Source: a virus
Strand: one strand, 5' to 3'
Virus record (IMG/VR): IMGVR_UViG_3300045974_000806
Coordinates: 1-64,000 of that record
DNA: 64,000 nt
Translations under genes and position numbers: made by a program
The notes under the pieces: model-generated
What the model was told of the DNA's origin: nothing
The model's database searches: none
What the model saw: only the letters and a program-made list of their open reading frames with translations
In this document: one piece after another, positions 199 to 63,621 of the stretch
Layout of the letters: each line of letters begins with the position of its first letter
Numbering within the stretch: the stretch's first letter is position 1

Positions 199-861
199 GT
201 GATGGACATTCTGGCGGAGCAAGGTGACGGCACGGTCACGCTTTCCCTGGTGGTGGGGGACAGCGCGGACCTGACGCTGACGGTGGACGACGGGGCCACG
301 CCGGCCGTGATCATGGACCTGTCCCAGGCCATGGACGGCACGCCCAACTGCCCGGCCATCATCCGCATGGCCATCAAGGACGCGCCGGCGGAGGAAGCCA
401 ACACCGCGGCGCTCACCTACCGCACCAGCTTTGACCCGGCGCAGATTGAGGTGCTTGCCCAGGCCAGCACCACGCTGGGCCAGATGGTCATCCATCTGGA
501 CAAGCCGGACACGGAGGCCGCGGACCCGTCCACCAGCTACAAGTGGGACGTGGAGGTGAGCCGCCAGGGCACCATCCGCACCAGCGTGGGCACCGCGGCC
601 ATTCCGGAAGGCGGCGGCGTGGTGGTGGGTTCCGGAACCGCGTGGACCAAGGCCCGGACGGGGGACATCCTGCAACTCACCAGCGGCGCCAACGCCGGCA
701 AGGTGGCCCTGGTGGCGTTGGTCACGGATGACACGCACCTCACGGTGGAGAACCCCAAGCTGACCGCGGACCCGTCCGCCACGTTCGTGCTCCGCCGCGG
801 CGTCCACCGCACCGTGGTGCGCGGTGCGTGCTCCCTGGTGCAAGGCGTGGTGACCGCATGA
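199..861 (+). CDS. Putative virion (head/neck-associated) protein
   Basis: 220-aa ORF, Thr/Val/Gly-rich, stop overlaps next start (ATGA at 858-861). C-terminal GSGTAWT...GDILQLTSGANAG...VTDDTHLTV beta module typical of virion proteins. Confidence 0.6.
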   Translation: MMDILAEQGDGTVTLSLVVGDSADLTLTVDDGATPAVIMDLSQAMDGTPNCPAIIRMAIKDAPAEEANTAALTYRTSFDPAQIEVLAQASTTLGQMVIHLDKPDTEAADPSTSYKWDVEVSRQGTIRTSVGTAAIPEGGGVVVGSGTAWTKARTGDILQLTSGANAGKVALVALVTDDTHLTVENPKLTADPSATFVLRRGVHRTVVRGACSLVQGVVTA

Positions 862-1931
862 GCCAACCGTTCTCAACGTCCAGCCCGGTGACGCTCCCGT
901 CCATTGAAACATGGTACGTGGGCCGCTGCTTCTTCTACCTGAAGGACCCGGCCGCGGCCCTGGCGTCGGGCTATGACCGCATCCGCATCTACAAGCGCCT
1001 GAAGCCGGCGGACCCGTGGGTGGAACTCACCAAGCCGGACACGCAGTTGCACATCGCTGCGGACAAGGTGAACTACACGTTCCTTGAGCAGAAGGCCGCG
1101 CGCGGTTCCGAGTACCGGCCGTCCCTCTCTTCCTCCCTGGGCGTGCTTCCGGATGTCCCCCAGGACGGCCTGATTCAGGACGCGGTGGACACGTCCTTTG
1201 AGACGCTTTGGACTTCCCAGGAAGTGCGGGACACGTTTGCCTGGGGCTTGTTGGGCCTGGGCACGGACGACTCCGGCAACCCGTTTCCGGAACGCTTCTA
1301 CGCGCACTACCTGAAGTACGGCGTGACCAAGTTTGAAACAAAGACGCGCATCCGCGTCCTGCCCACGCCCATTGTGGGGGAGCGCCACGACTACTGTCCC
1401 ACGGAATGGACGGACAGGTATTGGACGTTCATGCTGGACGAGTTCCCGTGCGTCAGCGTGGACAAGGTGACGTTCCAACTGCCCGGGTCCCAGCCGTTCG
1501 TCTTTCCGGAGTCCTGGGTGCAGGCGGACCTTGCCTTGGGCATTGTGGCCATTGTTCCGGACGGCTCCGCCCCCTGGGTGATTCCCACCACGTTCCGGAC
1601 GCCCGTTGGGTTCCCCAAGGTGACGCCGGGCGCCATCAAGATTGACTACGTGGCCGGCTTCCCCCTGGGCAGGGTTCCGGAGAACATCAGGGACATCATT
1701 GGCAAGGAGGCCATCTCCGGCTTCCTGAACCTCGCCGGCGACCTTGTTGGTGGTGCCGCCATCGCGTCCCAGTCAATGTCCATGGACGGCCTGTCCCAGT
1801 CCGTGAACACCACGTCCAGCCCAACAATGGGCGGCTTTGGTGCGAGGCTCATCCAATACAACAATGAACTCAAGCGGGACTATCCGCTGGTGCAGGCCCT
1901 CTACAAGGGACCGCGCCTCTACGTCGGGTGA
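858..1931 (+). CDS. Head-tail adaptor / head completion protein (SPO1/Twort-like)
   Basis: ATG at 858 coupled to upstream stop. Motifs IKIDYVAGFP, IASQSMSMDGLSQSVNTTSS...GFGARLIQY resemble Herelleviridae-type adaptors; position upstream of neck and sheath genes. Confidence 0.75.
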   Translation: MSQPFSTSSPVTLPSIETWYVGRCFFYLKDPAAALASGYDRIRIYKRLKPADPWVELTKPDTQLHIAADKVNYTFLEQKAARGSEYRPSLSSSLGVLPDVPQDGLIQDAVDTSFETLWTSQEVRDTFAWGLLGLGTDDSGNPFPERFYAHYLKYGVTKFETKTRIRVLPTPIVGERHDYCPTEWTDRYWTFMLDEFPCVSVDKVTFQLPGSQPFVFPESWVQADLALGIVAIVPDGSAPWVIPTTFRTPVGFPKVTPGAIKIDYVAGFPLGRVPENIRDIIGKEAISGFLNLAGDLVGGAAIASQSMSMDGLSQSVNTTSSPTMGGFGARLIQYNNELKRDYPLVQALYKGPRLYVG

Positions 1932-1934
1932 CTC

Positions 1935-2780
1935 ATGGTGGACAAGCGCCCGTTCGCATTGGATGCCGGGACCATCTTCCCGCCGACGGACAACCCCAAG
2001 GAAGCCGGCGCGCGCGTTGACTTCCGGACGGACATCTCTTTCCGGAACTTGGTGGAGTGGCATGGCGTCCGCTGGGCCTGGACGCGCATGACCATCTGCC
2101 CCTGCAAGGGCTTCAATGACCAGACGGGCCAGACGGACCCGCACTGTGCCATGTGCAACGGCCTGGGCTGGGCTCCCATCAAGACGCCCGGCTACTACAT
2201 GCAGGCGGAGAAGGTGGGCGTGCTGAATGAGGAGCAACAGGAACTCATCCGGCGCAACAACTCCATGCTCATCCGCGGCGTGGCCACGTCCATGACCTCC
2301 CAGCCCAATATGTTCGGCGTCCTGGGGCCGTGGGCGCTGGGCAACGTCATGATCACCGTGCGGGCGGAGAACAAGCTGGGCTACTATGACCGCCTTTGCT
2401 ACTTGGATGACGTCATGCCGTTCTCCGAAGTCATCACCCTGGGGGACAGCGCCACGGTGAAGACACGCTATCCGGTGGCGGCATTGAACGCGGTCATCAG
2501 CAGCACGACGGTCTACACGGAAAAGGACGTGTGGCTGGACAAGGGCGCGCTGTCCTGGGTGGACGGGCACCAGCCCGTTTCCGGAACCCGCATCTCCGTG
2601 AGTTATATGTGCCATCCGGTGTTCGTGGTGATCGACTACGCGCACCTGATTCGGACCATGCCCGTGCGCGCCAAGCTGCCCCGCGCCCAGCAGTTGACGC
2701 CCATGGGTGAGACGCTGAACCTGCCGCTGCAAGTGATTGCCCGCTTGGAGCACCTGCCCCTGGAAACGAGGGCGCCGTGA
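1935..2780 (+). CDS. Neck / head-closure protein with Cys motif
   Basis: CPC-x12-C-x2-C-x-G-x-GW and LGYYDR motifs typical of SPO1/Twort-like neck proteins; synteny. Confidence 0.7.
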   Translation: MVDKRPFALDAGTIFPPTDNPKEAGARVDFRTDISFRNLVEWHGVRWAWTRMTICPCKGFNDQTGQTDPHCAMCNGLGWAPIKTPGYYMQAEKVGVLNEEQQELIRRNNSMLIRGVATSMTSQPNMFGVLGPWALGNVMITVRAENKLGYYDRLCYLDDVMPFSEVITLGDSATVKTRYPVAALNAVISSTTVYTEKDVWLDKGALSWVDGHQPVSGTRISVSYMCHPVFVVIDYAHLIRTMPVRAKLPRAQQLTPMGETLNLPLQVIARLEHLPLETRAP

Positions 2781-4614: not shown

Positions 4615-7191
4615 ATGGCCACTTCGATCTTCTTCAATGGGCGCGTCATCAGCATCCCCGGCAGCTACAGCGAGGTGGACGCGTCGGGCCTTGAGTCCGT
4701 GGGCCTGGGCGCTTCCGGAATCGTCGCGGTGCTGGGCACGGCGGAGGGCGGCCGGCCTGTCTCTGCCATCTCGGAAACCAAGGACATCCCGCGGTTCACC
4801 AACCCGGACAAGATGCGCCGGGCGTTCCGGAAGGGCCAACTCCGTGAAGTGACGGACATGGTGTTCAGCCCGGCCAAAGATCCGGACATCCTGGCGGGCG
4901 CGCAGCAGGTGGTGACCATGAAGGTCAACCCGGCCACGCAGAGCGCCACCACGCTGCTGTCCGGAGTGACCCCGGTCCTGACCCTCACGTCAAAGGACTA
5001 CGGCGCCTTCACCTCGCAGATCAGCGTGGAAGTCCAGCCCGGCAGCAGCCAGGGCAAGATGCTCACCATCAAGATGGAGGGCGTCACGGAGACGGTGGAC
5101 AACCTGGGCGGGAGCCCGTTGGCCACGTTGCAGTATGACGGCGGGTCCTACGGCTACAACACCGCGGTGATGGCGCTGAACGATGCGGGGGACATCAGCG
5201 TCACCTGCACGCGCGCGGGCGCGGGCCTCAACGGCGCTGGCCAGCCGGCCGGCGAGATCACCCTGGTGACGGCCAACGCGGTGGAGTTCGCCGGCGTGAA
5301 CCTCACCGGCGTGGCGGCCACCCTGGCCGTGGCTTCCGGAACGGTCACCGCCACGGGCGTCACGGGGATGATTGCAGACTCCCTCCCGTCCAGCCCGTCA
5401 CCCATGCGTGGCCGCTTCATCACCATCAGCGGCGCCACCAACCCGGGCAACAACGGCACATTCGCCATTGCCGCCGTCCCGGGCATCACCAGCGTGCAGT
5501 GGGTCAACCTGAACGCGGTGGCTGAGAGCACCGGCTTCACGTGGACGGTGAGTGACGCCGGCCTGAAGGTCACCCTGTACGGCAAGTCCGCGGGCCTGCC
5601 CGTGCGTGAGACGCTGACCCACGCGGGCGCCACCACGGTCACCAGCAGCACCGTTTGGGATGCCACGGGCCTGTTGGGCATTGTGATGTCCGCGGCCCCG
5701 GTGGCCGGCGCCATCACCTTCAAAAACGCCCCTGGCGGTGCCACGGTGGCGGCCCTGGCCATTGGGCAGGTGTCCCGCGGCGCCATCGTCTGCGAAAACG
5801 CCTACGTGAACTCCGCGTCCGTGTCCCTCAAGCTGTCCGGGGCCGGCACGCAGCAGGTGGCCCTGTTCGGCAAGGACGCGGCCGGCAACAACGTGCAGGA
5901 ATTGATTGCCATGACGGGCGCGGTGGCCATCGCCAGCGTGGCCAGCACCTACGCGGAACTGCAAGCCATCTGCGTCAACCTGCTCCCCACGTCCCTCACG
6001 CTCACCTTGACCGCCCTGGCGGCCAAGTCCCTGGGCGCGGTGCAGACCACGGTCACCAAGGTCAAGGGCTACTTCGACGGGAAGACCAAGCTGACCAGCA
6101 GCAACACGGTGAAGGGTTTCCTGTTCAACACCCTCACGGGCCAGTCCAACTTTGCCGCCACGGACTTTGACATCATCAGCGGTTCCGGAGTGAGCATTGC
6201 GTCCCCGGCCACGGGCAACCTGACGGCGGACCTCTACGCCATTGCGGCCTGGGTGAACCAGAACAGCCAGTTGGTGTCCGCCCTGGTGCCGGCCAACGCG
6301 CCCGCGGTTCCGGACAACACCGCGGCGCCGGTGTTCCTGGCCGGCGGTGTGGAGGGCGTGGCGCTCTTCCAGCACTACCAAGCGGCCCTCACCCTGCTGA
6401 AGAAGATCCGGGTGAACAGCGTGGTGGACTTGTCCGGCGACCCGGCGGTGGCCGCCGCGGTGGATGCGCACTGCGCCTATATGGGCGGCGTGGGCCGGTC
6501 TGAACGGGACGGCTTTGTGGGCCTGCTCAACAACGCCAAGACCGACGTCACCACCAAGGATGACGCCAAGGCCCAGATTGTGGACATCAACAGCCGGCAC
6601 ATCCGCGCGTTTGCCCAGGCCATTGAGCGTTACGACTCCAACGGGGACCGCACGGAGTTCCTGCCCCCGTTCCTGGGAGCCATTGCAGCCGGCGCCCAGG
6701 CAGGCAGCCCGGTGGGGACGTCCCTCACGTTCAAGTACATGAACGTGCTGTCCTTCCGGCAGCACTCGTCATGGAACCCCACGGAGGACGCGGAAGAGAT
6801 GATCACCGCGGGCCTGTGCTTCCTTGAGAACAAGGAGGGCGTGGGCCGGCGCATTGTCCGGAACGTCACCACGCATCTGTCCTCCAACAACATCGCCTAC
6901 ATTGAAGGGTCCGTGAACACCGCGGTGAACTTCGCCGTGTTCAATTTCAGGACCAACATGGAGTTCGCGGTGGGCAAGCGCGGCTTCTCCGGAACGCTGG
7001 CCGCGGCACGCGGTGTGGCGGTGGGGACGCTGGGTCTGCTGGTGGACAACGTGGTGATCACCGCCTACCGCAGCCTGTTCATGGAACTGAACGTGGATGT
7101 GCTGGAAGTCTCTTTGGAGATTGCGCCCATCATCCCCATCAATTTCGTGAAGACGACGGTGCATCTGGTGACCGTGGCGCAGGCGGCCTGA
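4615..7191 (+). CDS. Contractile tail sheath protein with large central insertion
   Basis: N-terminal FNGRVISIPGSYSEVDASGL...VAVLGTAEGG; C-terminal LAGG, AAGAQAG, LTFK, RIVRNVTT, PIIPINFV sheath motifs; 858 aa. Confidence 0.92.
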   Translation: MATSIFFNGRVISIPGSYSEVDASGLESVGLGASGIVAVLGTAEGGRPVSAISETKDIPRFTNPDKMRRAFRKGQLREVTDMVFSPAKDPDILAGAQQVVTMKVNPATQSATTLLSGVTPVLTLTSKDYGAFTSQISVEVQPGSSQGKMLTIKMEGVTETVDNLGGSPLATLQYDGGSYGYNTAVMALNDAGDISVTCTRAGAGLNGAGQPAGEITLVTANAVEFAGVNLTGVAATLAVASGTVTATGVTGMIADSLPSSPSPMRGRFITISGATNPGNNGTFAIAAVPGITSVQWVNLNAVAESTGFTWTVSDAGLKVTLYGKSAGLPVRETLTHAGATTVTSSTVWDATGLLGIVMSAAPVAGAITFKNAPGGATVAALAIGQVSRGAIVCENAYVNSASVSLKLSGAGTQQVALFGKDAAGNNVQELIAMTGAVAIASVASTYAELQAICVNLLPTSLTLTLTALAAKSLGAVQTTVTKVKGYFDGKTKLTSSNTVKGFLFNTLTGQSNFAATDFDIISGSGVSIASPATGNLTADLYAIAAWVNQNSQLVSALVPANAPAVPDNTAAPVFLAGGVEGVALFQHYQAALTLLKKIRVNSVVDLSGDPAVAAAVDAHCAYMGGVGRSERDGFVGLLNNAKTDVTTKDDAKAQIVDINSRHIRAFAQAIERYDSNGDRTEFLPPFLGAIAAGAQAGSPVGTSLTFKYMNVLSFRQHSSWNPTEDAEEMITAGLCFLENKEGVGRRIVRNVTTHLSSNNIAYIEGSVNTAVNFAVFNFRTNMEFAVGKRGFSGTLAAARGVAVGTLGLLVDNVVITAYRSLFMELNVDVLEVSLEIAPIIPINFVKTTVHLVTVAQAA

Positions 7192-9245: not shown

Positions 9246-11342
9246 GTGACCACCAAGATCAGCAAGGTAGGCGTCCAATTTGAAGCCAAGGGCGCGGAGG
9301 CGGTGGACCGCCAACTCACCAAGACCACCGGCCGGCTCAAGACCATTGCGGAGCGCGGCCGGGACTTCGCGGCCATGGACAAGACGGTGGCCCGGCTGTC
9401 CAAGCAGTTCGCCACCATGGGCGCCCAGTTGGAGAAGATGAACCGGTCCATGGGCATGGCCGGTGGCGTCCAGCAGATGAAGGAGATGCAGAAGGCCACG
9501 GAAGCGGTCACCAAGGCCGTGGAGGCCATGACCCAGGCCAAAGAGAAGGCCCACAAGACGGAGAAGAAGCACAAGGAGGGACGCGAGGCCCTGTCATTCC
9601 ACCGCGGCATCGCGCAAGGGTTGGAGATCGGGGAATACTTTCCGGAAGAGTCCAAGGCGGGCTTCTACCGGAATCTGGCCGGCCGCGGCGTGGGGCGCAT
9701 GGCGCGCGGTGGTGTGTCCGCGGCGGCCACGCCCTTCACCGGCCAGGAAGGGTTCTCGGAGGCGCTGCGTTCCATCCCCGGCCTGGGCGGGTGGATGGCC
9801 CAGAAGTTTGGGGCCGCCATGCAGGCCGCCCAGATGGCCGTGGGCGTGGAGCAGCAGAAGGGCGGGTTCGCCTACCTCCACGGGATGGGCCACGGTGGCC
9901 GGAACGCGGTGGCCGCGGCCCAGGCAGCAGCCGGCGTGCGCATCCCAGGCATGAACCCCGCCGCCATCACCCTGGCGGGGAACCTCGCGGCCCGGGACGC
10001 CGGCATGCTGTTGCCCGCGGGCGGCAAGGTGCAGGAACCTGGGCCGGGCCGCGTGCGGGACCGCGCCCTGGCGCGCATGGATGCCCTCAAGCACGGCGGC
10101 CTCAAGGAACTGGCCCGGGTGGGCGCGGAGCAGCGCGCGGAGACGGCCGGCCTGGAAACGCCCGCGGAAGCCCGGGAGCGCGGTGAGAAGACGGAGCGCG
10201 CGGCCCAGGAAAAGGGCATCCGGAACGCCAAGGCAGCCCGGGAGGCGGCCCGCCGGCGGGCGGAGAACGCGGACTTCAACGCCCCCTTTGGGGACATGAT
10301 CAGTGCCGGCATCCGGTTTGGCCTGGACCCGCGGCAGGCCATCCAGGCAGGCAGTGAACTGGTGAACACGGCCGGGCTGAACTTGGAGGACGTGTCCAAG
10401 GGCCGCCTGACCACCGCAATGGCCGCCCAGCGCAGGTTCGGCGTTGGGATGGGGGAATCGGGCACCATGATGCGCGGGGAGCGCAGCGGGGCGCTGGGGG
10501 GGTCCTACGAGTCCAACCTGCAAGGGGCGCTTGAGACGGCCCACAGCATGGGCCTCCGCGGCCAGGACGTGTCCAACTACGTGCGGGACATCGCGTCCAA
10601 GGTGCAGTCCTTTGAGCAGACGGGCATCCCGGTGGCCCGCAAGAGCCTGGGGCAACTCCAACTGGGCCTTGCCCAGGTGGTGGGCGGGATGCGCGGGCAG
10701 GTGCTGGGCCAGCAGTTGATGGGCACGGTGCAGAACATTGGCATGAACGGTCCCAAGGACGCGGCCCAGATGCTGGCCTTCCGGCAGATGGGTGGGTTCA
10801 GCGGCGGGAACATCAACGACTACTGGGCCGCGCAGAAGAAGATGGCCGCGGGCGGAGACACGGAGGGCCTGGGCCGGATGCTGTCCGCGGTGCAAGAGGG
10901 CCTGGACGAGCCGGGCGCCAAGTCCCTGGCCGTGAAGAACCTGCTGGGCCGGCTGGGCGTGAACATCAACCCGGGGGAGGCGGACGCGTTCACGGGCGGT
11001 GACACCAGCATGTTGGAAACGTGGCGTGGCCAGATGGCCGCCGGCGGGAAGGCGGCCGGGCGCGTGGGCGGGGAACTGGCCGGTGCCCAGGCCACCGGGA
11101 CGGAGCAGGAAGTGGCCGCGTCAGAGGCCGCCAAGTACGCGTCCGGGGAGAAGGTCATCACCGCCTTCCTTGAGTTTGAGAAGGTGTCCAACCAAGGCAT
11201 CAAGGACGTGGCCGTGTTCGGCAAGGAACTGGGCCAGATGGCCGGCTGGGCCGCAAAGACGTCGGAAGAGTTCACGGGCATCCTTGAGAAGTGGAAGAAG
11301 ATCACGGATGACACCCTGCACAAGATGGGGCTGGCCCAATGA
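9246..11342 (+). CDS. Tape measure protein
   Basis: 698 aa, Ala/Gly/Met-rich, predicted helical; follows the chaperone pair. Confidence 0.8.
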   Translation: MTTKISKVGVQFEAKGAEAVDRQLTKTTGRLKTIAERGRDFAAMDKTVARLSKQFATMGAQLEKMNRSMGMAGGVQQMKEMQKATEAVTKAVEAMTQAKEKAHKTEKKHKEGREALSFHRGIAQGLEIGEYFPEESKAGFYRNLAGRGVGRMARGGVSAAATPFTGQEGFSEALRSIPGLGGWMAQKFGAAMQAAQMAVGVEQQKGGFAYLHGMGHGGRNAVAAAQAAAGVRIPGMNPAAITLAGNLAARDAGMLLPAGGKVQEPGPGRVRDRALARMDALKHGGLKELARVGAEQRAETAGLETPAEARERGEKTERAAQEKGIRNAKAAREAARRRAENADFNAPFGDMISAGIRFGLDPRQAIQAGSELVNTAGLNLEDVSKGRLTTAMAAQRRFGVGMGESGTMMRGERSGALGGSYESNLQGALETAHSMGLRGQDVSNYVRDIASKVQSFEQTGIPVARKSLGQLQLGLAQVVGGMRGQVLGQQLMGTVQNIGMNGPKDAAQMLAFRQMGGFSGGNINDYWAAQKKMAAGGDTEGLGRMLSAVQEGLDEPGAKSLAVKNLLGRLGVNINPGEADAFTGGDTSMLETWRGQMAAGGKAAGRVGGELAGAQATGTEQEVAASEAAKYASGEKVITAFLEFEKVSNQGIKDVAVFGKELGQMAGWAAKTSEEFTGILEKWKKITDDTLHKMGLAQ

Positions 11343-12802
11343 CGGCCGTCAAGCCCATCCCCGGCTTCCAGGGTTCCCGCACGTCCGGAGCCAAGGTCAC
11401 CCTCTACAGCCACGCGGATGACCCGGTGCTGGGCGAGGCCCAGAAGTCCCGCATTGAGGTGGTGGGCCACGGGAACATTCCGGAAGAGGCCCCGTCCGTG
11501 GTGTCCATCCAGACCTCAAAGAGCCTGGGCGCCGCGTCCGGAACGTGGTCCGCGGAGGTGAAAGCGCCGGCCCATTCCGGACAGGCGGACCTGCTGGAAC
11601 GGGTGGTGGATGACGACTGGGTTGATCTGTCCCTCACGGTGAACGCGCGCAAGACGCACATCATGCGCGGGCAGGTGGACACCATGCGCCGGCGCACGGC
11701 GGTGGGCGGGAACGGCGCCACCACGCGCGTCTATTCGTTCAACGGCCGGGACCACGGCGCCATCTTTGAGAAGAGCAACATCTGGTTCAACCAGTTCACG
11801 TCCGTGAACGCCATTGCCGGCCAGTTGGGCATCCGGCTGGGCCAGCGGATTCCGGTGGGACCGCCCAACGCCATTGTGGAGCAACTGCTCTACGGGATGC
11901 TGGACGTCCTGCATGACGCCGGCAACGCGAACTGGCGCCTGCCCCGGAGCATGGGCGTGCTGGGCGGCGCGGCCCTGGTGGACGCCATGCCCTTCCTTGA
12001 CGGGGACTTTGACAATGACCCGCCGCGGGAAGCCAACCTCGTCACCATGGACACGCCCAATGGGCGGCCCCTGTGGTCCTTTGCCCAGGAATGGGCGGAC
12101 CCCATGTTTTGTGAACTGTTCTGCGACCTGACGCCGGCCGCGGGCGGTCCCATCTACATGGACCCCAACAAGGAGTACGGCGAGGACGACACCATGATGG
12201 CGGTGTTCTTCCGGAACAAGCCGTTCCCCACCACCGCCAACCCGGGCGGCCCGCTGCTGTCCAGCCTGTGGGGGAACATCCCCATGGTGGAGATTCCGGA
12301 ACAGTACATCAGCAACATGGACGTGGGCCGCGGCGGCACGGAACGCTTCACCATGTTCACCGTCTCACCCCAGGTGGTGCAGGCGGTTTCTGACGTTGAC
12401 TACACCGCGCCGCTGTGGAGCCCGGAGGACGTGGGCCGGCACGGCGTGCGCCAGTTCGCCGTGGAAAGCCGCTACGTCACCAAGCAGGCAAACCTGCTGA
12501 CCATGACCAAGGCCCAGCGGGAACAGGTGGTGTCCTGGCACGCCATTGCCCCCTACCTGCTGAACGGGAACATCACGCTGGGCGCGCTCTTCCCAGGCAT
12601 CCGCGTGGGCATGCGCCTGCGCATCGTGAACGAACGCAGCACGTTGCAGGAAAGCTACTACGTGGAGGGCGTGAGCCACCGGTGGAACGCGCGCACGGGC
12701 GGCAGCACTTCCCTGGTGGTGACCCGCGGGTGGCGTGGGACGGACGAGGCATACATGAACGCGGTCTACAAGCTGAGTGACCGGTATGAGGTGGCAAAGT
12801 GA
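11339..12802 (+). CDS. Baseplate hub protein
   Basis: VVSIQTSKSL..SGTWS, NGRDHG, DPMFCELF, IRVGMRL, YYVEGVSHRW...TSLVVTRG hub motifs. Confidence 0.8.
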   Translation: MTAVKPIPGFQGSRTSGAKVTLYSHADDPVLGEAQKSRIEVVGHGNIPEEAPSVVSIQTSKSLGAASGTWSAEVKAPAHSGQADLLERVVDDDWVDLSLTVNARKTHIMRGQVDTMRRRTAVGGNGATTRVYSFNGRDHGAIFEKSNIWFNQFTSVNAIAGQLGIRLGQRIPVGPPNAIVEQLLYGMLDVLHDAGNANWRLPRSMGVLGGAALVDAMPFLDGDFDNDPPREANLVTMDTPNGRPLWSFAQEWADPMFCELFCDLTPAAGGPIYMDPNKEYGEDDTMMAVFFRNKPFPTTANPGGPLLSSLWGNIPMVEIPEQYISNMDVGRGGTERFTMFTVSPQVVQAVSDVDYTAPLWSPEDVGRHGVRQFAVESRYVTKQANLLTMTKAQREQVVSWHAIAPYLLNGNITLGALFPGIRVGMRLRIVNERSTLQESYYVEGVSHRWNARTGGSTSLVVTRGWRGTDEAYMNAVYKLSDRYEVAK

Positions 12803-14082
12803 CCAACCGCATCCAGGCCCGCGGCTTCCAGGGCGGCGCCGTGAAGTCTTCCGGAGTCCCCGCCGGCGGCATTGAGGCCCAGCACGGACTGCGCGCGCAC
12901 GGCATGCTGCTGTCCGGCGTGGTGATTGCCTCCTACGTGCAACTGGACGGCAACCCGGCCCTTCCGGAAGGCCACGTGCAGCGGCCCACCGCGGTCTACT
13001 GCGACGTGCTCATCTACAGCACGCGCGCGGCCCTGCGCGGGCAAGTCATCTATGCCGCCATGGTCGCGGACAGCGTGGGCCTGCACGGCGGCCACGTGTG
13101 GATTCCTCGCGCGGCCACGCTGAACATCGCGGGGGAAAAGACCGGCCTCCCGGTGGTGGACCCACGGGACCTCGACGGGGACCACGTGCTGGTGCAGTTC
13201 CTTGACGACAACCTGAACAGCCCGGTGATCACCAGCCGCATCCCGCACCCCCAGGCCGGGCTTGGCAACGAGGAGTTCCCCCAGGCCGGCCACCGCGTCC
13301 TGCTGAAGGTTTCAGACGGCACCGTGGACTTCCGGAAGCATCAGGGGACGTTCCAGGGTGTGGACGCCAACGGGAACTTTCTGGTGGACTCCACGCGCGC
13401 GCACGGCGGCAAGTACACGCTGGGCGGCGGGGAAGACGCGGGGAAGAACGCCATCTTTGGGAACCAGACGTTCACGTTGCCCAACGTGGCCAAGTTCACC
13501 GTCCTGGGCGTGGAGGACCAAGGCAAGCACGCGCCCAACAATGAGAAGTTCCGGCTGGTGCTTGAGGCCAACAAGCTGACCGTCCAGATGATGGATGACC
13601 CGCTCAAGTCCGTGGTGCTGGACACGGACGCCAAAACGCTCACCGTGAAGCTGGGCGCGGAGAACAAGTCCCTGGTGCTGGACGAGAACGCCGGCAGCCT
13701 CACCGTCAAGCTGGGGGATGACAACAAGTCCCTGGTGCTGAACGGGACGTCCCTCACCGTGAAGCTGGGGGACGCCACGCATGAACTGGTGCTGGACCAC
13801 AGCGCCTTGGAAGCCAAAGTGGGCGGGGACGGCCTCAAGCTGGAACAGTTTGGGCCGTCCGCGGTCCTGGCTATTGGCGGCGGTGGGGACTTCGCGGTGT
13901 CCTTCAACCAGTTGGACGCGTGGTGGACCGTGGTGGGGCCGCTGATTGCTAGCCACGTCCACCCCACCACCGCCCCTGGCGCCCCCACGCTCACATCTCC
14001 GGCCATTGCCACTGTGGGCAGTGCCCCTCCCCAAGCCCTTTGGAAGCTGGCCGGCCTCAAGGTCCGCGCCGGCAACGCATGA
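12799..14082 (+). CDS. Baseplate central spike (gpV/gp5-like)
   Basis: OB-fold GDHVLVQFLD..PVI; beta-helix repeats KSLVL..SLTVKLG; C-terminal HVH metal-binding tip. Confidence 0.8.
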   Translation: MTNRIQARGFQGGAVKSSGVPAGGIEAQHGLRAHGMLLSGVVIASYVQLDGNPALPEGHVQRPTAVYCDVLIYSTRAALRGQVIYAAMVADSVGLHGGHVWIPRAATLNIAGEKTGLPVVDPRDLDGDHVLVQFLDDNLNSPVITSRIPHPQAGLGNEEFPQAGHRVLLKVSDGTVDFRKHQGTFQGVDANGNFLVDSTRAHGGKYTLGGGEDAGKNAIFGNQTFTLPNVAKFTVLGVEDQGKHAPNNEKFRLVLEANKLTVQMMDDPLKSVVLDTDAKTLTVKLGAENKSLVLDENAGSLTVKLGDDNKSLVLNGTSLTVKLGDATHELVLDHSALEAKVGGDGLKLEQFGPSAVLAIGGGGDFAVSFNQLDAWWTVVGPLIASHVHPTTAPGAPTLTSPAIATVGSAPPQALWKLAGLKVRAGNA

Positions 14083-14089
14083 GGAACCC

Positions 14090-14449
14090 ATGACCACCAA
14101 GCAGGCCGCCCTGGCGGCAGCCATCCACGGCACCATGCCCTTGGAGCCATCTCCGGCCCCGGTCCCCGCCCTGGTGGACCTCCCCCTGCGCCTGTACTGC
14201 GATTCCATGGCGGAGGCCCTGCTGGGCACGGCACCTCCGGCCGCCACGCCCCCAGGTGCCCCTGGCGTGCTCACCGCGGCCTACCCATCCCCGGTTGCCC
14301 CCACGCCCGGGCCACACGTGGCCGCGGCGTCCAACGGCACCCTGCCGGCCACCACGGACGCCGTGCTGTGCCAGATCCACGTGGACGCTTCCGGAAACGC
14401 CCACGTGTTCAACGGGACCGTCTGGAAGAAGCTCAAGTTCGACCCATGA
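14090..14449 (+). CDS. Hypothetical Pro/Ala-rich tail protein
   Basis: GAGGA RBS, ATG 14090; C-terminal VFNGTVW motif. Confidence 0.55.
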   Translation: MTTKQAALAAAIHGTMPLEPSPAPVPALVDLPLRLYCDSMAEALLGTAPPAATPPGAPGVLTAAYPSPVAPTPGPHVAAASNGTLPATTDAVLCQIHVDASGNAHVFNGTVWKKLKFDP

Positions 14450-14485
14450 CGGCCGGCCCCTTCCCCAGGTAAGCTGGCCGGCACC

Positions 14486-16447
14486 ATGGCGTTCACCATC
14501 ACTGACGCAACCATCCGGAACGTGAACGACGCAGACGCCACCGCCGCGGCGTCTGACTTCATCCCCATGTCCCGGCTGCTGCGCGCGGTGGCGGAGGAAG
14601 CCCGGGAGAGCGCCACCAAGGACGCAAAGTTCTTCAAGAGCCTGCTCTACTACTTTGAGTTGGAGGTGCCCAAGAAGCTGTCCCCCGGCCCCAACAAGTA
14701 CCTCTACCCCCTGGTGCTGCCTCCGGAGTCCTACGGGATGACGGAGCCCTTTGCGGTGGAGCAGGCGTTCACCCTGGGCGGTGGGCTCTTTGTGGAGGAA
14801 CAGGGTGTGGTGGCCAGGACCATCACGCTTTCCGGAACCACCGGGTGGGCGCCCCGGAAGCAGAAGGGGCCGGTGTCCAACTTCAATTTCATCTCCGCAC
14901 CCCAGCACCGCACGTGGCGCCGTGACGTCACCAAAACGGTGAAGGCCCTCACCGCGCTTTCCGGACAGCGGCACTTTCAGTTCCTGCAAGACACCGTGTT
15001 CCGGACCTACGGGGACCTGAAGCAGGACCCGGCCACGTCGGAAGACACCAAGCTGTACTTCCACAACGTGCAGGACGACGAGCATTGGCGCGTGTTCCCC
15101 ATGTCGTTCAGCATGAGCCGGAGCGTGGCACAGCCGCTGCTCTACAAGTACGACATCCAACTGCTGGCCGTGGCTCCGGAGTCCGTTCCGGAAGAGAAGC
15201 TGTCCGAGGACGGCCCCGTCATGGCGGCCCTCCGGAACCCGTTCCGGGTGATCAAAAGCGCGGTGGACAACATCCGCGCCGCGGTGCTGGACCTGTCCGC
15301 GGTGACGGGGGAACTCCGGGCCGTCAACGGCAAGTTCACCAGCCTGCTGGATGGGGCCGTGGGCATTGCAGACGCCGCGGAGAAGTTCCTCGACGGCACC
15401 GCCACGCTGATTGCCCAGCCGCTGTCCCTGGTGGAGAACACCATGAAGGCCGGCAATGACGCGCTGCTGGAATGGAACACCGGCGTGGCCTCCGGCTCCG
15501 CCATTGGCCCGCCGGCCAACCTGCTCAACAGCATCCGGAAGATCATTGACTCCCTGGCCCTGATTGGAAGCTACCCGGGCTCTTTCCGGAACAGCATCCA
15601 GGCGGAGGTGGACAAGTTCCTGGCCCAGGCGTCCCTGGCCTACCGCAACAAGGCGTCCCTCAAGGCGGCGGTGAACAACATCCCGTCCACGCTCCGCGGC
15701 TTCTCATCCCAGGCCCGCGGGACCACGCCCAACCCGGGCGACTACGCGCGGTCCCTGGCGTCCCTGGGCCTGGGGCAGGACACCCCGCGCTACGCCAGCG
15801 CCGTGGAATACGTGCTTGAGATGGGGGACAGCCTGGAAAACCTCGCCGCGCGCTACCTGGGGGACGCGCGGAACTGGAAGTACATTGCCCTGTTCAACGG
15901 CCTGAAGGCCCCCTTCATCAGCCAGGACGGCCTGCCGGGCACGCTCCGCTGGGGGGACAAGATCCTCATCCCGTCCACCGCGGCGCCGGCGGTGGTGGCC
16001 ACCAACCCCGCGGTCCTGGGCACGCGCGCCAATGAGCCGGGCGCCGTCCAGGCCCTGGGCCGGGACCTGCTGTTGACCGCGGTGGACCGGGATCAATTTG
16101 ACCTTGTGATCGACGCAGACGGCGGCGGCATTGACATCAAGCTGACGGACGGGGTGGCCAACCTGAAGCAGGCCATCCGGACGCGCATCATCACGGAGAA
16201 GGGCACGGACATCCTGTACCGGAACCTGGGATGCTCCCGCGTGGTGGGCCTGGGCTTGACGGAGGTGGACCTTGAGACGGCCAAGATCCGGCTGGTGGAG
16301 GCGGTGGGCGCGGACCCCCGCATCGCCGCGGTCACCAACGTGACGTTCAATCTGGTACAGCCTGACGGGGTGGAGGCGGACCTCACCGCGGAAGTCCGCG
16401 GGTTCTCGCGCCCGGAGCAGGTGGTTGTGGTCACCCCCGTTGTCTAG
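14486..16447 (+). CDS. Baseplate protein: tube-initiator-like N-term + LysM + gp25/gpW-like C-term
   Basis: ITLSGTTG N-terminal motif; LysM YVLEMGDSLENLAARYLGD..W..IA.FN...GDKILIP; gp25-like GVANLKQAIRTRIITEKG...DPRI. Confidence 0.75.
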   Translation: MAFTITDATIRNVNDADATAAASDFIPMSRLLRAVAEEARESATKDAKFFKSLLYYFELEVPKKLSPGPNKYLYPLVLPPESYGMTEPFAVEQAFTLGGGLFVEEQGVVARTITLSGTTGWAPRKQKGPVSNFNFISAPQHRTWRRDVTKTVKALTALSGQRHFQFLQDTVFRTYGDLKQDPATSEDTKLYFHNVQDDEHWRVFPMSFSMSRSVAQPLLYKYDIQLLAVAPESVPEEKLSEDGPVMAALRNPFRVIKSAVDNIRAAVLDLSAVTGELRAVNGKFTSLLDGAVGIADAAEKFLDGTATLIAQPLSLVENTMKAGNDALLEWNTGVASGSAIGPPANLLNSIRKIIDSLALIGSYPGSFRNSIQAEVDKFLAQASLAYRNKASLKAAVNNIPSTLRGFSSQARGTTPNPGDYARSLASLGLGQDTPRYASAVEYVLEMGDSLENLAARYLGDARNWKYIALFNGLKAPFISQDGLPGTLRWGDKILIPSTAAPAVVATNPAVLGTRANEPGAVQALGRDLLLTAVDRDQFDLVIDADGGGIDIKLTDGVANLKQAIRTRIITEKGTDILYRNLGCSRVVGLGLTEVDLETAKIRLVEAVGADPRIAAVTNVTFNLVQPDGVEADLTAEVRGFSRPEQVVVVTPVV

Positions 16448-18891: not shown

Positions 18892-18902
18892 AGGAGCCGG
18901 CC

Positions 18903-37464: not shown

Positions 37465-37510
37465 GATACGCAACGTCGGTCAGACCGGACTTGGACCGAC
37501 GTTATGTATC
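37465..37510 (+). promoter_or_regulatory. Long intergenic hairpin upstream of DNA polymerase
   Basis: GATAC-gc-AACGTCGGTC pairs with GACCGACGTT-at-GTATC. Confidence 0.55.
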
Positions 37511-37588
37511 AGTTCCTGCAACAACCCCGTGACCTGACGGGCCGCGCTGCATGGTGAGTGCAGGCGGCAGCAGGGGAGGTGGTTCCCA

Positions 37589-40133: not shown

Positions 40134-40164
40134 GTGAGACGTTTCCGGCCCAGGACACTACCTA
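40134..40164 (+). promoter_or_regulatory. Phage-specific promoter-like motif copy 2
   Basis: GTGAGACGTTT-ccggcccagga-CACTACCTA, 22 nt before the SSB ATG. Confidence 0.8.
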
Positions 40165-40186
40165 CAAAGAAGAGAGGGAATCACCC

Positions 40187-48460: not shown

Positions 48461-48463
48461 GCC

Positions 48464-48829
48464 GTGTTGATCCTTGTGACCAAACAGACGGTGCTGATGG
48501 ACGTGAGCCGGCTGATGATTGAGCGGCTTGCCCGCGCGTTGCGCGTGGAGCCATCCCTGGTGAAGGTGAACTGGGTGCAGGAAAACGGCAGCATCTCTCC
48601 GCGCATTGACGTGGAATTGCCGCCCATCATCCCGCCGGCGGACGTGGACGTGACTGACCCGGTGGCCATGGCGGCGTGGGAGGCCGGCAACGCGGACCTC
48701 CCGGGCATCTATGACTTCCTGAAGGCCCGCGGCATCGACAATCCGGAGGCCATCATCAAGCACCAAGTGGCCGTGTCCATGGCGGACTTGAAGGCCCGGA
48801 TGGGAGCGTTCCGGAAGGTGGCGGCATGA
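48464..48829 (+). CDS. Hypothetical protein
   Basis: GGAGG RBS; coupled to next gene. Confidence 0.6.
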   Translation: MLILVTKQTVLMDVSRLMIERLARALRVEPSLVKVNWVQENGSISPRIDVELPPIIPPADVDVTDPVAMAAWEAGNADLPGIYDFLKARGIDNPEAIIKHQVAVSMADLKARMGAFRKVAA

Positions 48830-52279: not shown

Positions 52280-52621
52280 ATGACCACCACCTCCAAGTTC
52301 GTCAAGCATGACGCCGGCAAGAACCTGCTGGGATGCCTGCCACCGCGGGCGTTGATGTCCATTGGCCGCGTGCTCACCCTGGGCGCGGCCAAGTACAGCC
52401 GCGATAACTGGCACAAGGTCCGCGAACGGTCCCGCTATTACGACGCCCTGTTGCGGCATCTGTTCGCGTGGTGGGCCGGCGAGGACAAGGACCCGGAGTC
52501 CGGGGAAAGCCACCTTGCCCACGCCGGCTGCTGCCTGATGTTCCTGCTGGAATTGGAGGAGGTGGGCTTGGCGGAGGATGACCGCCCGCACTTCCGGAAC
52601 GACAAGCGGGTGAAGCCATGA
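52280..52621 (+). CDS. dATP/dGTP diphosphohydrolase N-terminal domain protein (DUF5664-like)
   Basis: KHDAGK...GAAKY..DNW...YYDALLRHL.AWW.GED.DPESG.SHLAHA. Confidence 0.85.
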   Translation: MTTTSKFVKHDAGKNLLGCLPPRALMSIGRVLTLGAAKYSRDNWHKVRERSRYYDALLRHLFAWWAGEDKDPESGESHLAHAGCCLMFLLELEEVGLAEDDRPHFRNDKRVKP

Positions 52622-58421: not shown

Positions 58422-58448
58422 GACGTTTTGGCCCCTGCCCACTACCTA
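58418..58448 (+). promoter_or_regulatory. Phage-specific promoter-like motif copy 3
   Basis: GTGAGACGTTT-tggcccctgcc-CACTACCTA, 21 nt before dcd. Confidence 0.8.
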
Positions 58449-58469
58449 TGGGAAAGGAGGCACAAAACC

Positions 58470-59042
58470 ATGCTGCTGAATGACTGCGAGATCGCGGCCC
58501 TGGCCGTTGAGCAAAAGATGATCACCCCGTTCTGCCCGGAGAACGTGTCCGAGAAGTACGGGAACAAGGTGGTGTCCTACGGCCTGTCATCCGCCGGCTA
58601 TGACATCCGGCTGGCGGATGAGTTCGCCGTGTTCAGCCCAGTCCGGGTGACGGGCGCGGTGGACGTGAAGGCGTTCAACACGGACGCCCTGGTGCGCTTC
58701 AACGCGGATGTTTGTGACATCCCCGCGCACAGCTACGTGCTGTGCCGCAGCCTGGAAACATTCCGGATGCCGGAGGACGTGGCCGCCACGTGCGTGGGCA
58801 AGTCCACCTACGCACGCGTGGGATTGATCGTGAACGTCACGCCGCTTGAGCCTGGGTGGGAAGGCAACCTGACGTTGGAGATCAGCAACAGCAGCCCGTG
58901 CCCCGTGCGCGTCTACGCCGGCGAGGGCATTGCCCAGTTGCTGTTCCACCGCCTGAGCGGCCGTCCGTCGGTCACGTACCGTGACAAGGGCGGCAAGTAC
59001 ATGGGCCAGCATGGCGTCACGCCCCCAAAGATGAAAGCCTGA
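58470..59042 (+). CDS. dcd: dCTP deaminase
   Basis: SYGLSSAGYDIRL, GKSTYARVG, NVTPLEPGWEGNLTLE, GIAQL, Y.DKGGKY.GQ.GVT. Confidence 0.96.
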   Translation: MLLNDCEIAALAVEQKMITPFCPENVSEKYGNKVVSYGLSSAGYDIRLADEFAVFSPVRVTGAVDVKAFNTDALVRFNADVCDIPAHSYVLCRSLETFRMPEDVAATCVGKSTYARVGLIVNVTPLEPGWEGNLTLEISNSSPCPVRVYAGEGIAQLLFHRLSGRPSVTYRDKGGKYMGQHGVTPPKMKA

Positions 59043-59272: not shown

Positions 59273-59431
59273 ATGGAAGACCCGCGGTGGCTGCAATGGG
59301 TGTGGCGCGTGCTCCGGCGCGTGGACATCCACGTGGACTTCATCACCACGGAAGAAGCGGCCCAGGAACTGCTGGGGCGCGAGGTTCGGTTCATCTGGCG
59401 GCCGGTGATCCACACCGGCGAGGAGGAGTGA
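59273..59431 (+). CDS. Small hypothetical protein (52 aa, not in ORF track)
   Basis: GGAG RBS; MEDPRWLQWVWRVLRRVDIHVDFITTEEAAQELLGREVRFIWRPVIHTGEEE fills the gap exactly. Confidence 0.6.
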   Translation: MEDPRWLQWVWRVLRRVDIHVDFITTEEAAQELLGREVRFIWRPVIHTGEEE

Positions 59432-59433
59432 CC

Positions 59434-60069
59434 ATGTATGTGGCTGTTGAGGGAATCATTGGAGCAGGCAAGAGCACCCTGGCCCAGCATCTGGCCAAAC
59501 GCATGGACTGGCGCATGCTGGCGGAACCCATCGACGGGAACCCGCTGCTGGGCAAGTTCTACGAGGACAGCGCGCGGTGGGCGTTCACCATGCAGATCCG
59601 GATGCTGCATGACCGCTACCGACTCCAACAGGTGGCCGCGCATGACCACCAACCGTGCGTGCTGGACCGGTCCCTCCCAGGTGACCGCGTGTTCGCCAAG
59701 CTGCAAGTGGACTACGGCAACATGCACCCCTTGGAGTGGGAAACCTACGAACGCTGCTACTACGCCATGAGCGCCATCCGCCCGCCCATGGTGATGGTCT
59801 ACCTGCGCGTGAACCCCGACGTGGCCATGCAGCGGATGGTGACCCGCGCGCGGGACGTGGAGCGGCACTTGCCGGTGGAGTACCTGCGGGACCTCGCGCG
59901 TGGGTATGACGACCTGATTGCCCAGATTGAATCCGGAAAGCACGCCTGGGGCCGCGGCATCTCTGTGCTCACGGTGAACTGGGACAAGCAGATCACCGGA
60001 CGTGACTACGTGGACACGCTGGACGCCCTGGTGCCGCAACTCACCGCGGCCATGGAGGGGCGTGTCTGA
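59434..60069 (+). CDS. Deoxynucleoside kinase (dNK family)
   Basis: VAVEGIIGAGKST, EP, LDRS...D..F, R.R.VE. Confidence 0.93.
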   Translation: MYVAVEGIIGAGKSTLAQHLAKRMDWRMLAEPIDGNPLLGKFYEDSARWAFTMQIRMLHDRYRLQQVAAHDHQPCVLDRSLPGDRVFAKLQVDYGNMHPLEWETYERCYYAMSAIRPPMVMVYLRVNPDVAMQRMVTRARDVERHLPVEYLRDLARGYDDLIAQIESGKHAWGRGISVLTVNWDKQITGRDYVDTLDALVPQLTAAMEGRV

Positions 60070-62322: not shown

Positions 62323-62538
62323 ATGGTGATGCCGCGTGAGACGGTGAAGGGCGGAGCGCCGGCAACGTGCCCGGAGTGCAACCGCACCGTGGTTCCGGAA
62401 GTGCTCCACAGCCCGGCCGGCTACTACGTGGGGACCATGTGCGGGTGCGGCCCGTACAGCCGGGAGTCCACCTATTTCGCCACGGAGCCGGCCGCGGCCC
62501 AGGCCCAGGCCCTGGCCAGCGGGAGGTATGGACGATGA
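62323..62538 (+). CDS. Hypothetical zinc-binding protein
   Basis: CPEC...VLHSPAGYYVGT.C.CGPYSRES.YF. Confidence 0.65.
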   Translation: MVMPRETVKGGAPATCPECNRTVVPEVLHSPAGYYVGTMCGCGPYSRESTYFATEPAAAQAQALASGRYGR

Positions 62539-62801
62539 TCACCCGGGAGCGGCTACGCCAGATGACCGCGGACTTGGACAGCGTTGGGTTCTTCCGGAAC
62601 GAGACAACGGAGGAACTACGCGCGCTGGTGTCGAGCGTCGAGTTCGCCAAGGACGTGGCGGAGCAGGACTGCAACTATGGGGACGGATGCCACGGCACGC
62701 ACTCCCCGCGGAGCACGCCGGCACGCCACGGCCGTTGCACCGCATGCGCCGCGCGGCTGGCCCTGGGCCTGCCGGCGTCCGCGGAAGGTGTCTACCCATG
62801 A
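62535..62801 (+). CDS. Hypothetical protein
   Basis: ATGA coupling at both ends. Confidence 0.6.
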   Translation: MITRERLRQMTADLDSVGFFRNETTEELRALVSSVEFAKDVAEQDCNYGDGCHGTHSPRSTPARHGRCTACAARLALGLPASAEGVYP

Positions 62802-63160
62802 CCATGGCCCAGGAAAGCTACGTTGAGCGCCCGTTCGTCATCCAGCACGTGGACCACCCCGGTGACTACGTGTTGTTCTGGAAGGGCAACCGCGCCGGCT
62901 ACACGGTGAACTTGGATGAGGCCGGCCGCTACACGGAAGAGGAAGCGCGCAACATTGTGATGGGCCGTCCGGAAGTGGACGTGGCGCTGATGTTCAAGGA
63001 CGTGGAGGCGGAAGTCCGGCGCGTGGTGCTGCGGGACCGGGCCTACTTCCTGACCAAGGTCTACGTGCCCAAGAACATCCACCCGCACACCGTGGTGGTG
63101 TCCCGCCGCGGTGGGCCGGATGACCTGTTCACCAACATCACCGTCGGAGGCAAGCCATGA
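62798..63160 (+). CDS. Hypothetical protein
   Basis: FW....GYT.NLDEAGRYTEEEA motif common in phage accessory genes. Confidence 0.65.
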   Translation: MTMAQESYVERPFVIQHVDHPGDYVLFWKGNRAGYTVNLDEAGRYTEEEARNIVMGRPEVDVALMFKDVEAEVRRVVLRDRAYFLTKVYVPKNIHPHTVVVSRRGGPDDLFTNITVGGKP

Positions 63161-63621
63161 GTGGATGGATGTTGCCATGTGGCCAGTGCATGGCCTGCAA
63201 GACTTCCGGAAGCGCCGCGTGCGAACGGCCGCTGAACTATGAGCCCAACGCCATCAAGTGGCGCCCAGGTGACCGCGTGCTGCATGACGCGGACGCCAAG
63301 AACGCAGGCATGTTGATGCGCGTCCTGGCCAGGAACCGCAACGGCATGGTGCGCACGGAATACCTCGACCCCGTGTTGCAGAAGCGGTGGGGCAAGGGCC
63401 GGCGCTCCACGCTGATCAACCCGTTGGAGGCGCTGCATGATCCGGAACGGTTCGGCGTGTTCGAGGACCGCGCCCACGCTGCATGGCACCGGGAGAAGGC
63501 CGCCCAGTTGCGCGTGGCCATGGAGGAATCCACCGCGCTGCTGGACCGCGGACAGGTGACCCAGGCCGTCAAGGTGTTGGAGCGTTCCGGAGTCATGCAT
63601 TGCCCCCAGTGTGAGTGCTGA
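63157..63621 (+). CDS. Hypothetical protein
   Basis: YEPN..KW..GD.V.HDADAK...MLM.V motif. Confidence 0.65.
   Translation: MSGWMLPCGQCMACKTSGSAACERPLNYEPNAIKWRPGDRVLHDADAKNAGMLMRVLARNRNGMVRTEYLDPVLQKRWGKGRRSTLINPLEALHDPERFGVFEDRAHAAWHREKAAQLRVAMEESTALLDRGQVTQAVKVLERSGVMHCPQCEC

Follow-up and report, generated by a model that had tools for sequence, protein, structure and literature searches.

The first 64,000 nt of the virus record IMGVR_UViG_3300045974_000806 raise the question of why a single eight-letter palindrome, TTCCGGAA, is written over and over into the DNA of a phage. This stretch, referred to here as the window, comprises bases 1–64000 of a 110,271-bp IMG/VR record that is rated complete by CheckV and is labelled G000. 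An earlier reading, made from the letters of the window only (the sequence-only reading), had put the number of octamers at about 90 and likened them to HIP1 (GCGATCGC), a highly iterated palindrome (HIP); in the literature consulted, HIPs are described for cyanobacteria only, and the abundance of HIP1 is said to be absent elsewhere (Xu, Lawrence and Durand, 2018; PMC5861425). The evidence supports the view that TTCCGGAA acts as a true HIP1-like word at the level of DNA, and that it does not result from protein constraint. As to what lies behind it, we see about an even chance that it is a recognition word in duplex DNA that is maintained by selection and inherited in the phage lineage, with a dialect shaped by host restriction.

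Abundance, spacing and form of the octamer

The exact count in the window is 92 copies, with the outermost at 602 and 63204–63211, and all eleven coordinates that had been given as examples are correct. The array (602–63211, unstranded) also comprises 211 TCCGGA cores within the window and runs on to the end of the 110-kb record, which holds 155 octamers and 364 TCCGGA hexamers, and in which TTCCGGAA tops the ranking of all 8-mers. A zero-order model predicts 1.04 copies in 110 kb, matching the ∼0.6 that the sequence-only reading had predicted for the window, and gives a 149-fold enrichment at 1.41 copies per kb for the whole record. Dinucleotide-preserving shuffles of the window yielded a mean of 0.79 copies and a maximum of 4, and the reversed, uncomplemented form of the word has 0 copies in the 110,271-bp record.

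Most copies are genic (85 of the 92 in the window lie wholly within genes, and ∼90% of the 155 are genic). Inside genes, 130 octamers compare with 11.9 ± 3.0 after a synonymous-codon shuffle that keeps the proteins and with 1.7 ± 1.3 after permutation of codon order, and these codon-preserving nulls bear out the earlier claim that protein constraint fails to explain the word. The use of all three frames had also been recognised, with 30 coding copies now assigned to F-R-N/K, 60 to x-P-E and 40 to S-G. Across the whole record, 140 of the 205 coding slots that are compatible with the protein are occupied, including 30 of the 31 F-R-N/K slots, whilst twelve control octamers of similar make-up, with 4–135 capable positions each, occupy 0–7% of them. 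The capable positions for TTCCGGAA are themselves two to three times as numerous as those for most control octamers, which argues that the amino-acid sequence has been shifted too. The codon GGA, described before as otherwise disfavoured, does indeed make up only 11% of Gly codons, and in-frame TCC-GGA accounts for 77 of the 327 GGA codons.

Between genes, 15–25 copies are present in the whole record, the number varying with the gene call. One of these (29120–29127) begins one base past the stop codon of the gene at 27122–29119, and two further intergenic copies lie near it at 29634 and 29671. Intergenic copies had been anticipated, as had the presence of the word in the lower-GC fibre gene (18855–23393, GC 0.613), which contains four octamers and 12 hexamers. 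The statement that all three HNH genes carry the word stands for the HNH gene at 44295–44852 only, with one copy; Pfam gave two further HNH_3 open reading frames (ORFs).

It is next to inconceivable that the pattern reflects base composition, or the usage of codons or dipeptides, or that it stems from a repeat family or an assembly artefact. Strong codon bias and high GC content do inflate some 8-mers, with codon-like words, CGAAGAAG among them, reaching 15–30-fold over the composition expectation in control phages, but shuffles that preserve dinucleotides, codons or proteins fall short of the observed number by 10- to 100-fold. The use of three frames and of intergenic DNA, together with the low occupancy of the matched control octamers, likewise refutes a composition artefact. 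The bases beyond the octamer carry no information, the flanks being without conserved sequence, and TTCCGGAA is therefore not part of a longer repeat or mobile element. The sites also fall inside intact genes, among them those for the sheath, baseplate, primase and polymerase.

The copies are spread more evenly than expected by chance, with an index of dispersion over the whole record of 0.69 at 1 kb, 0.28 at 5 kb and 0.12 at 10 kb (p about 0.001), and of 0.31 at 4 kb in the window alone (p = 0.008). The TCCGGA hexamer alone is not under-dispersed, and neither are three of four control 8-mers of equal frequency, the fourth being CCTGGGCG (0.42 at 5 kb, p = 0.009). No period was found in the spacing of the octamers (nearest-neighbour coefficient of variation 0.88), 110 kb being short for an analysis in 5-kb bins as applied to HIP1. 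A regular lattice was rejected, no periodicity having been found in the spacing; of the lattice about every 0.7 kb that had been proposed, what stands is the even spread, which fits a distance-limited mark.

The word is written into double-stranded DNA whatever the reading frame, the strand or the age of the gene, and occupancy of the positions able to accommodate it is close to saturation. Lineage-specific ORFans at 50–72 kb carry TTCCGGAA at normal density, which agrees with the earlier suggestion that the word is actively created even in recently acquired DNA, but a 2.7-kb stretch of three genes outside the window (106,055–108,747) does not, with 0 TCCGGA against about 9 expected. It has probably been acquired recently. 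Similar islands free of the word are seen in two of the related phages described below, G006 (36035–40293) and G007 (10733–15463).

Within the octamer, the TCCGGA core is constant and the outer positions vary. The core is flanked by T/A in 63% of cases at each side, roughly independently of the other side (n = 364), and one-letter deviants of TTCCGGAA number 22, 32.5 and 21.5 copies for outer positions and 0–4.5 for inner ones. One-letter deviants of HIP1 are likewise reported at outer positions (Elhai, 2015; PMC4390886), and the proposed parallel with HIP1 thus extends to the deviant pattern. This similarity favours the main rival explanation, which we regard as rather unlikely, in which the word is a by-product imposed by the host, as in Elhai's model for HIPs. 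An orphan TCCGGA methyltransferase of the host, combined with a methyl-dependent bias in mismatch repair, would ratchet near-cognate sequences, in whatever DNA is replicated in the cell, towards TCCGGA and then TTCCGGAA, saturating near one copy per kb. It would follow, with the same low likelihood, that the word has no function for the phage and that related phages differ through the methylases of their hosts. The density of 1.4 per kb and the even spread match the saturation that this model predicts, and the 2.7-kb island without the word is as expected of recently acquired DNA. TCCGGA is also a classical type II target (BspEI/Kpn2I/AccIII), and the identity of the core with a methylase or restriction target is a further point for imposition by the host. 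In this phage, TCCGGA is 9.6-fold in excess, which is the opposite of restriction-site avoidance, and other palindromes are depleted, with CTAG at 0.03 and TCGA at 0.2 of expectation, and seven palindromic hexamers at 0 copies against 9.4 expected.

Related phages and their dialects

G000 is, as judged from its genes, a contractile-tailed phage, encoding a sheath, tail-tube initiator, baseplate J, large terminase and portal, and ∼90% of its genes are on one strand. Among cultured phages, megablast with 20–32 kb and tblastn with the ORF at 9246–11342 gave no match, and the family-A DNA polymerase (PolA) of G000 is <30% identical to that of every INPHARED record; a single-protein PolA scan of IMG/VR also gave no match. 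A protein search did, however, reveal a large family of ∼100–113-kb metagenomic contigs with PolA proteins 40–67% identical to that of G000. The nearest of these (67%) is on a 7.9-kb JGI contig; a metagenome scan gave only relatives at 41–44%. The relatives compared, ∼100–110-kb myoviruses whose PolA proteins are 40–49% identical to that of G000, were 11 IMG/VR members and three metagenome contigs, with G006 (record labels L214–L219), G007 (L220–L225) and G010 taken whole. G010 was also considered as a provirus, which was rejected, there being no word-free host flank.

None of the 14 relatives contains TTCCGGAA, and most have a hyper-abundant word of their own. G010 (96.8 kb, GC 0.585) has 141 copies of TTCTGGAA/TTCCAGAA, mostly as TTTCTGGAA, and G006 (110 kb) and G007 (107 kb), both of GC 0.585, have ∼200 copies of GTCTGGA each, including 129 and 112 copies of CGTCTGGA, respectively. 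In these three genomes and in G000, the TCYGGA core occurs at ∼3 per kb despite the difference in GC content (0.668 vs. 0.585), and the top 8-mer at 1.0–1.5 per kb. To the question of whether related phages share the motif, which the sequence-only reading had posed, the answer is that TTCCGGAA itself is absent, but that variant words on a TCYGGA core are present at the same density and at partly homologous positions. A second frequent word, TCGACGA/CGTCGA, was observed in G007.

In a tree of PolA proteins, G000 is sister to G006 and G007 (support 93/93). A second clade contains the TTCCAGAAA phages (G010, L325 and L326, of which the latter two carry TTCCAGAA) and three members without a word, and the members of a third clade have the words GCTCGAGC, CGTCGACG, CGGCGCCG or AGCTGGA, the last of these in L133. 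That relatives in this third clade bear unrelated 8-bp palindromes is what differing host methylases might produce, and counts in favour of the by-product model.

The asymmetric words of the relatives are distributed over the two strands in ratios of 66:75, 94:103 and 101:103, with no bias in any region. Chi-type words are asymmetric and strand-biased, whereas TTCCGGAA is palindromic and the words of its relatives are unbiased even though ∼90% of genes are on one strand; a Chi-like oriented signal, as had been suggested for the octamer, is therefore unlikely.

In the sister phages, TCCGGA has 0 copies in G006 against 35 expected and 7 in G007 against 34, and CCGG is halved in both. The core that builds up in G000 thus seems to be avoided in its sisters in the manner of a restriction site. 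Independent decay of TCCGGA into TCTGGA in G006 and G007 is excluded by the orientation of GTCTGGA, which is identical at 77 sites and flipped at 3. Over 52 kb, these two phages share 73% nucleotide identity, and 51% of GTCTGGA sites are retained in position, compared with 12.8% for all 7-mers, which ranks the word top among frequent 7-mers.

Site conservation was measured directly for G006 and G007 only, and for G000 through coincidences between lineages, using codon alignment of reciprocal-best orthologs. TCCGGA in G000 coincides with TCTGGA or TCCAGA at 7–9 exactly codon-aligned positions per genome pair, with ∼0.4 expected, at ∼45% amino-acid identity. An example is the octamer over a conserved Ser-Gly in the tail-sheath gene (4713–4720, plus strand), whose codons are TCT-GGA in both G007 and G010. 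Five of the coincidences are non-synonymous. At 13330–13337 (plus strand, gene 12799–14082), G000 reads F-R-K and G006 reads F-W-K over TCTGGA (CGG vs. TGG). At 24143–24150 (plus strand, gene 24059–27106), the F-R-N of G000 is F-Q-N over TCCAGA in G010, and at 35230–35237 (plus strand, primase gene 34618–35691), F-R-K is F-Q-K over TCCAGA, again in G010. The remaining two lie in the genes at 100637 (FRK/FQK) and 90964 (IRK/IQK). At all five, the word was retained in the DNA whilst the protein changed along with the central CG to TG/CA, giving Arg (CGG) on one side and Gln or Trp (CAG/TGG) on the other. The sites therefore predate the split of the lineages, and the dialect changed in place.

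Several of these results are poorly accounted for by imposition by the host. The TCYGGA core persists, partly at homologous sites, across GC contents from 0.52 to 0.67, a range from which it follows that the lineages probably have different hosts. The non-palindromic words of the relatives would be atypical as targets of orphan methylases, and a conservation of sites four-fold above background is not predicted once saturation has been reached. In addition, G000 encodes a replisome of its own, and neither MutS/L/H nor Vsr was seen among its proteins.

It seems to us an evenly balanced proposition that TTCCGGAA represents a local dialect, palindromic in form, of a TCYGGA-core word in an uncultured family of ∼100–110-kb contractile-tailed phages. 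Under the explanation that we favour, a selected and inherited recognition word, the octamer would mark duplex DNA for recognition by a protein with a reach of ∼1 kb. It might serve replication, repair or recombination as a site for loading, nicking or strand discrimination, or else label the DNA as self for protection. Its reader would belong to the conserved core of the phage family, or be a factor common to all of the hosts and not to one particular host, and the choice of dialect in each lineage would be set by the restriction landscape of the host, as the full purge of TCCGGA from G006 may illustrate. More tentatively, and with some doubt, it is possible that this large-myovirus family runs a word system of its own, in which a conserved phage factor uses evenly spread TCYGGA-type words as loading or marking sites. 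The dialect would then switch in place (CG to TG/CA, Arg to Gln/Trp) when a new host restricts the old word, and the factor might be an H1-like/DUF2924-like protein encoded beside the polymerase, or else belong to the machinery of replication and recombination.

Candidate writers, readers and hosts

A six-frame search of G000 for C5 methylases, N4/N6 methylases and Vsr (PF00145, PF01555 and PF03852) found none, and no methylase families appeared in Pfam scans of ∼110 G000 ORFs. A phage-encoded methylation system, one of the possibilities raised earlier, was thus not found, and the methyltransferase of matching specificity that would be expected of a HIP genome was not recognised in G000. A C5 methylase is present in the accessory region of both sisters, G006 (76726–77013) and G007 (48403–48687, minus strand), which is a point for the by-product model; it is absent from G000 and G010, and no methylase is conserved across the phage family.

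With regard to readers, the only conserved candidate DNA binder without an assigned function that was seen is a Lys/Ala/Pro-rich protein (36445–37464, plus strand) encoded directly upstream of PolA, the gene containing four octamers. It has a DUF2924-like domain at residues ∼190–277, with weak structural likeness to DUF2924/RAMA (predicted local distance difference test score of the model 0.47), and is to be taken as a lead only. The gene is found upstream of PolA in 14 of 14 relatives and in 0 of 69 unrelated PolA phages. Its presence does not track that of a word. A ParB-type reader was also rejected as a family trait, since a ddrB-ParB domain occurs in G000 only and ParB_N in none of the phages. 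Searches of the PDB by sequence with three conserved proteins without assigned function gave no match.

The word is not restricted to G000. Of 15 genomes checked whole, among the matches listed in a triple-word scan, two are truly enriched and 13 are not. The two are Bacteroidota metagenome-assembled genomes (MAGs), OH_PBB_261 and UBA1952, with 3692 and 3349 copies of TTCCGGAA in 2.9 and 2.7 Mb (1.25 per kb). That bacterial genomes with the octamer at such a density exist is consistent with imposition by a host, but these octamer-bearing bacteria, among the matches listed, use the dialect TTTCCGGAAA at a GC content of 0.53, with T at position −1 in 75–80% of copies compared with 12% in the phage. 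No sequence or protein similarity was found between the candidate bacterial loci and G000. Given this other dialect, the GC content of 0.53 as opposed to 0.67 and the lack of similarity, the TTCCGGAA-rich Bacteroidota are unlikely to be hosts of G000. A Wenzhouxiangellaceae MAG (G001) was rejected as a TTCCGGAA-rich host because its copies lie in ∼30-bp-spaced repeats at contig ends and the genome is not enriched. The repeats, found at several contig ends (for example C4:5-192 and C6:17-344; also L106), are short and form CRISPR-like or tandem arrays that contain the octamer.

Among viruses, two IMG/VR scans revealed no other high-GC phages with dispersed TTCCGGAA, but several unrelated phages with GC contents of 0.31–0.53 do have dispersed copies. 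One unrelated 31-kb viral contig, L431 (IMGVR_UViG_3300009788_000242, GC 0.53), has 34 dispersed octamers in 14 kb, mostly as CTTCCGGAAG, which is a third dialect. Dispersed, hyper-abundant 8-mers of their own, at ∼1–2 per kb, were also observed in unrelated PolA phages from IMG/VR (L140, L141, L143 and L145; L174; L194; L182), these being ACGACAAT-type words, CCAGCTTC, AAAAACGG and CCACACCG. In the prophage-like control record L144 (IMGVR_UViG_2916265895_000009), the top 8-mer is AAGTGCGG, with 10 copies in 13.8 kb. We take AAGTGCGG for the core of uptake signal sequences of the Haemophilus type, and L144 presumably is a phage or prophage that mirrors the word of its host.

L144, on that identification, lends some weight to the idea that the phage copies a self-recognition word of its host, be it a Chi-like stop for a helicase-nuclease, a watermark akin to uptake sequences or a decoy against defence, although we think this improbable for G000. 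On circularly permuted ends, a palindrome would be functional from both directions, and an even spread would suit the protection of ends that may fall anywhere. The word also shares properties with the uptake sequences of Pasteurellaceae (uptake signal sequences) and Neisseriaceae (DNA uptake sequences), which occur at ∼1 per kb in both orientations, are evenly spaced and lie in genes with effects on the peptide, which have core-sharing "dialects" in related lineages and which can be carried by phages or prophages of such hosts. Uptake sequences, however, are 9–12 nt long, non-palindromic and often paired in terminators, and they arise from biased uptake and recombination in competent hosts, whereas G000 shows no sign of a host, of a competence system or of pairing in terminators. 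The drive behind them needs transformation and recombination, neither of which a probably virulent 110-kb phage would undergo. Chi words, for their part, are strand-biased, which the asymmetric words of the relatives are not. No host with the word at a matching GC content was found among the matches listed in the genome scan, and the sites predate the split of lineages with very different GC contents. HIP1 itself has recently been proposed to be a watermark (PMC13756078), which would favour a role of this kind.

Taken against a selected word that is inherited in the phage lineage, there are a number of observations to be weighed. The TTCCGGAA-rich Bacteroidota MAGs and the unrelated phages of GC 0.31–0.53 indicate that host-linked or horizontally mobile causes of this word exist, and TTCCGGAA may be enriched throughout the genome of the host of G000. 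No reader protein was identified among the candidates examined, and the DUF2924-like protein is also present in the three relatives without a word, so that nothing ties this candidate to the word. The under-dispersion of words is weak in the relatives. Some of the coincident sites involve a synonymous change over a conserved Ser-Gly or Pro-Glu/Asp dipeptide, and these could have been recruited independently. Finally, the quite different words of other clade members (GCTCGAGC, CGTCGACG and CGGCGCCG) are reminiscent of the "alternate HIPs" of cyanobacteria, which track methylase specificity (PMC4390886).

Comparison with known systems and other genome features

By analogy, TTCCGGAA can be regarded as the counterpart, in a phage, of cyanobacterial HIPs. 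Both words are 8-bp palindromes built on a 6-bp core of the restriction/methylase type, and TTCCGGAA falls within the definition of a HIP as a palindromic 6–8-mer, enriched at least ∼15-fold, at ∼0.3–3 per kb; the enrichment of HIP1 is 15- to 300-fold at ∼1 per kb, and that of the octamer in G000 149-fold at 1.41 per kb. They also share the use of all reading frames and of DNA between genes, deviants at the outer positions, lineages with differing words, sites that are conserved above background between relatives, and a distribution that is non-random and even. The differences are that TTCCGGAA is in a phage and not in a cyanobacterium, with no cognate methyltransferase found in G000; that the relatives of G000 use the non-palindromic TTTCTGGAA and CGTCTGGA on both strands; that no long-range periodicity was found in G000, the spread being only more even than random; and that word and sites are inherited along a viral lineage from GC 0.52 to 0.67. 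The Bacteroidota MAGs resemble G000 in having the same octamer genome-wide (1.25 per kb), but their word extends to TTTCCGGAAA at GC 0.53, whereas the word in G000 is a strict 8-mer with G/C flanks at 0.67.

The stoperators of temperate phages, mycobacteriophage L5 being an example, are ∼13-bp, asymmetric and mostly intergenic sites, ∼30 in number, that are oriented with transcription. Stoperator phages resemble G000 in having tens of short sites spread over the genome, which in their case are read by a phage-encoded protein. The 155 copies in G000 are ∼90% genic and without orientation, which is not the pattern of an operator array.

Literature searches for HIP1 with cyanophage and for over-represented phage palindromes returned no description of HIP-like words in phages, and a full-text search for TTCCGGAA returned only primers and eukaryotic sites. 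What is new here is the even spread, the near-saturation count, the switch from CG to TG/CA in place with Arg becoming Gln or Trp, and the full purge of TCCGGA in a sister phage. Among environmental phages, iterated words may be more widespread than has been appreciated. The purpose of HIP1 is unsettled after 30 years, with proposals that include marks for mismatch repair and a watermark for DNA uptake, and a 110-kb phage offers a much smaller HIP-like system in which reader, modification and effect on fitness are directly testable. Useful contrasts are provided by relatives that are one central transition apart at homologous sites and by a sister with the core purged. Selection at the level of DNA can evidently override protein sequence in phages, and iterated words can mislead k-mer-based host prediction and analyses of restriction avoidance. 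A family-wide word system of the phages, if true, would be a virus-encoded analogue of HIP1 or of uptake sequences, and a small, tractable model for the function of such words.

The genome of G000 encodes further proteins of replication and recombination, comprising a helicase, a DnaB-like helicase, the primase, the family-A polymerase, a RecA-like protein, an Mre11/Rad50-like pair, RuvC and a clamp. No tRNA was found in the window. Three genes in the window are related to the nucleotide pool, encoding a MazZ-like dGTP/dATP diphosphohydrolase domain (52280–52621; PF18909, E 4e-33), a dCTP-deaminase-like protein (58428–59042) and a deoxynucleoside kinase (59287–60069). PurZ was not found in G000, and the gene content suggests manipulation of the pool, possibly with a non-canonical base, but not the classical Z-genome set.

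Outside the window, G000 has giant "polyvalent" proteins in the head region (82849–88785, 88834–90888 and 90964–100029), with PAPS-reductase, ddrB-ParB, SNF2, InPase, ART-PolyVal, LPD1 and intein domains. Twice outside the window (70500–70522 and 88798–88820), an intergenic TTCCGGAA is immediately preceded by the 13-mer GCTTTTTGTATTG plus AC or CC, the first time before the gene at 70581 and the second between the gene for a 1978-aa polyvalent protein and the SNF2 gene; the 13-mer has a promoter-like look.

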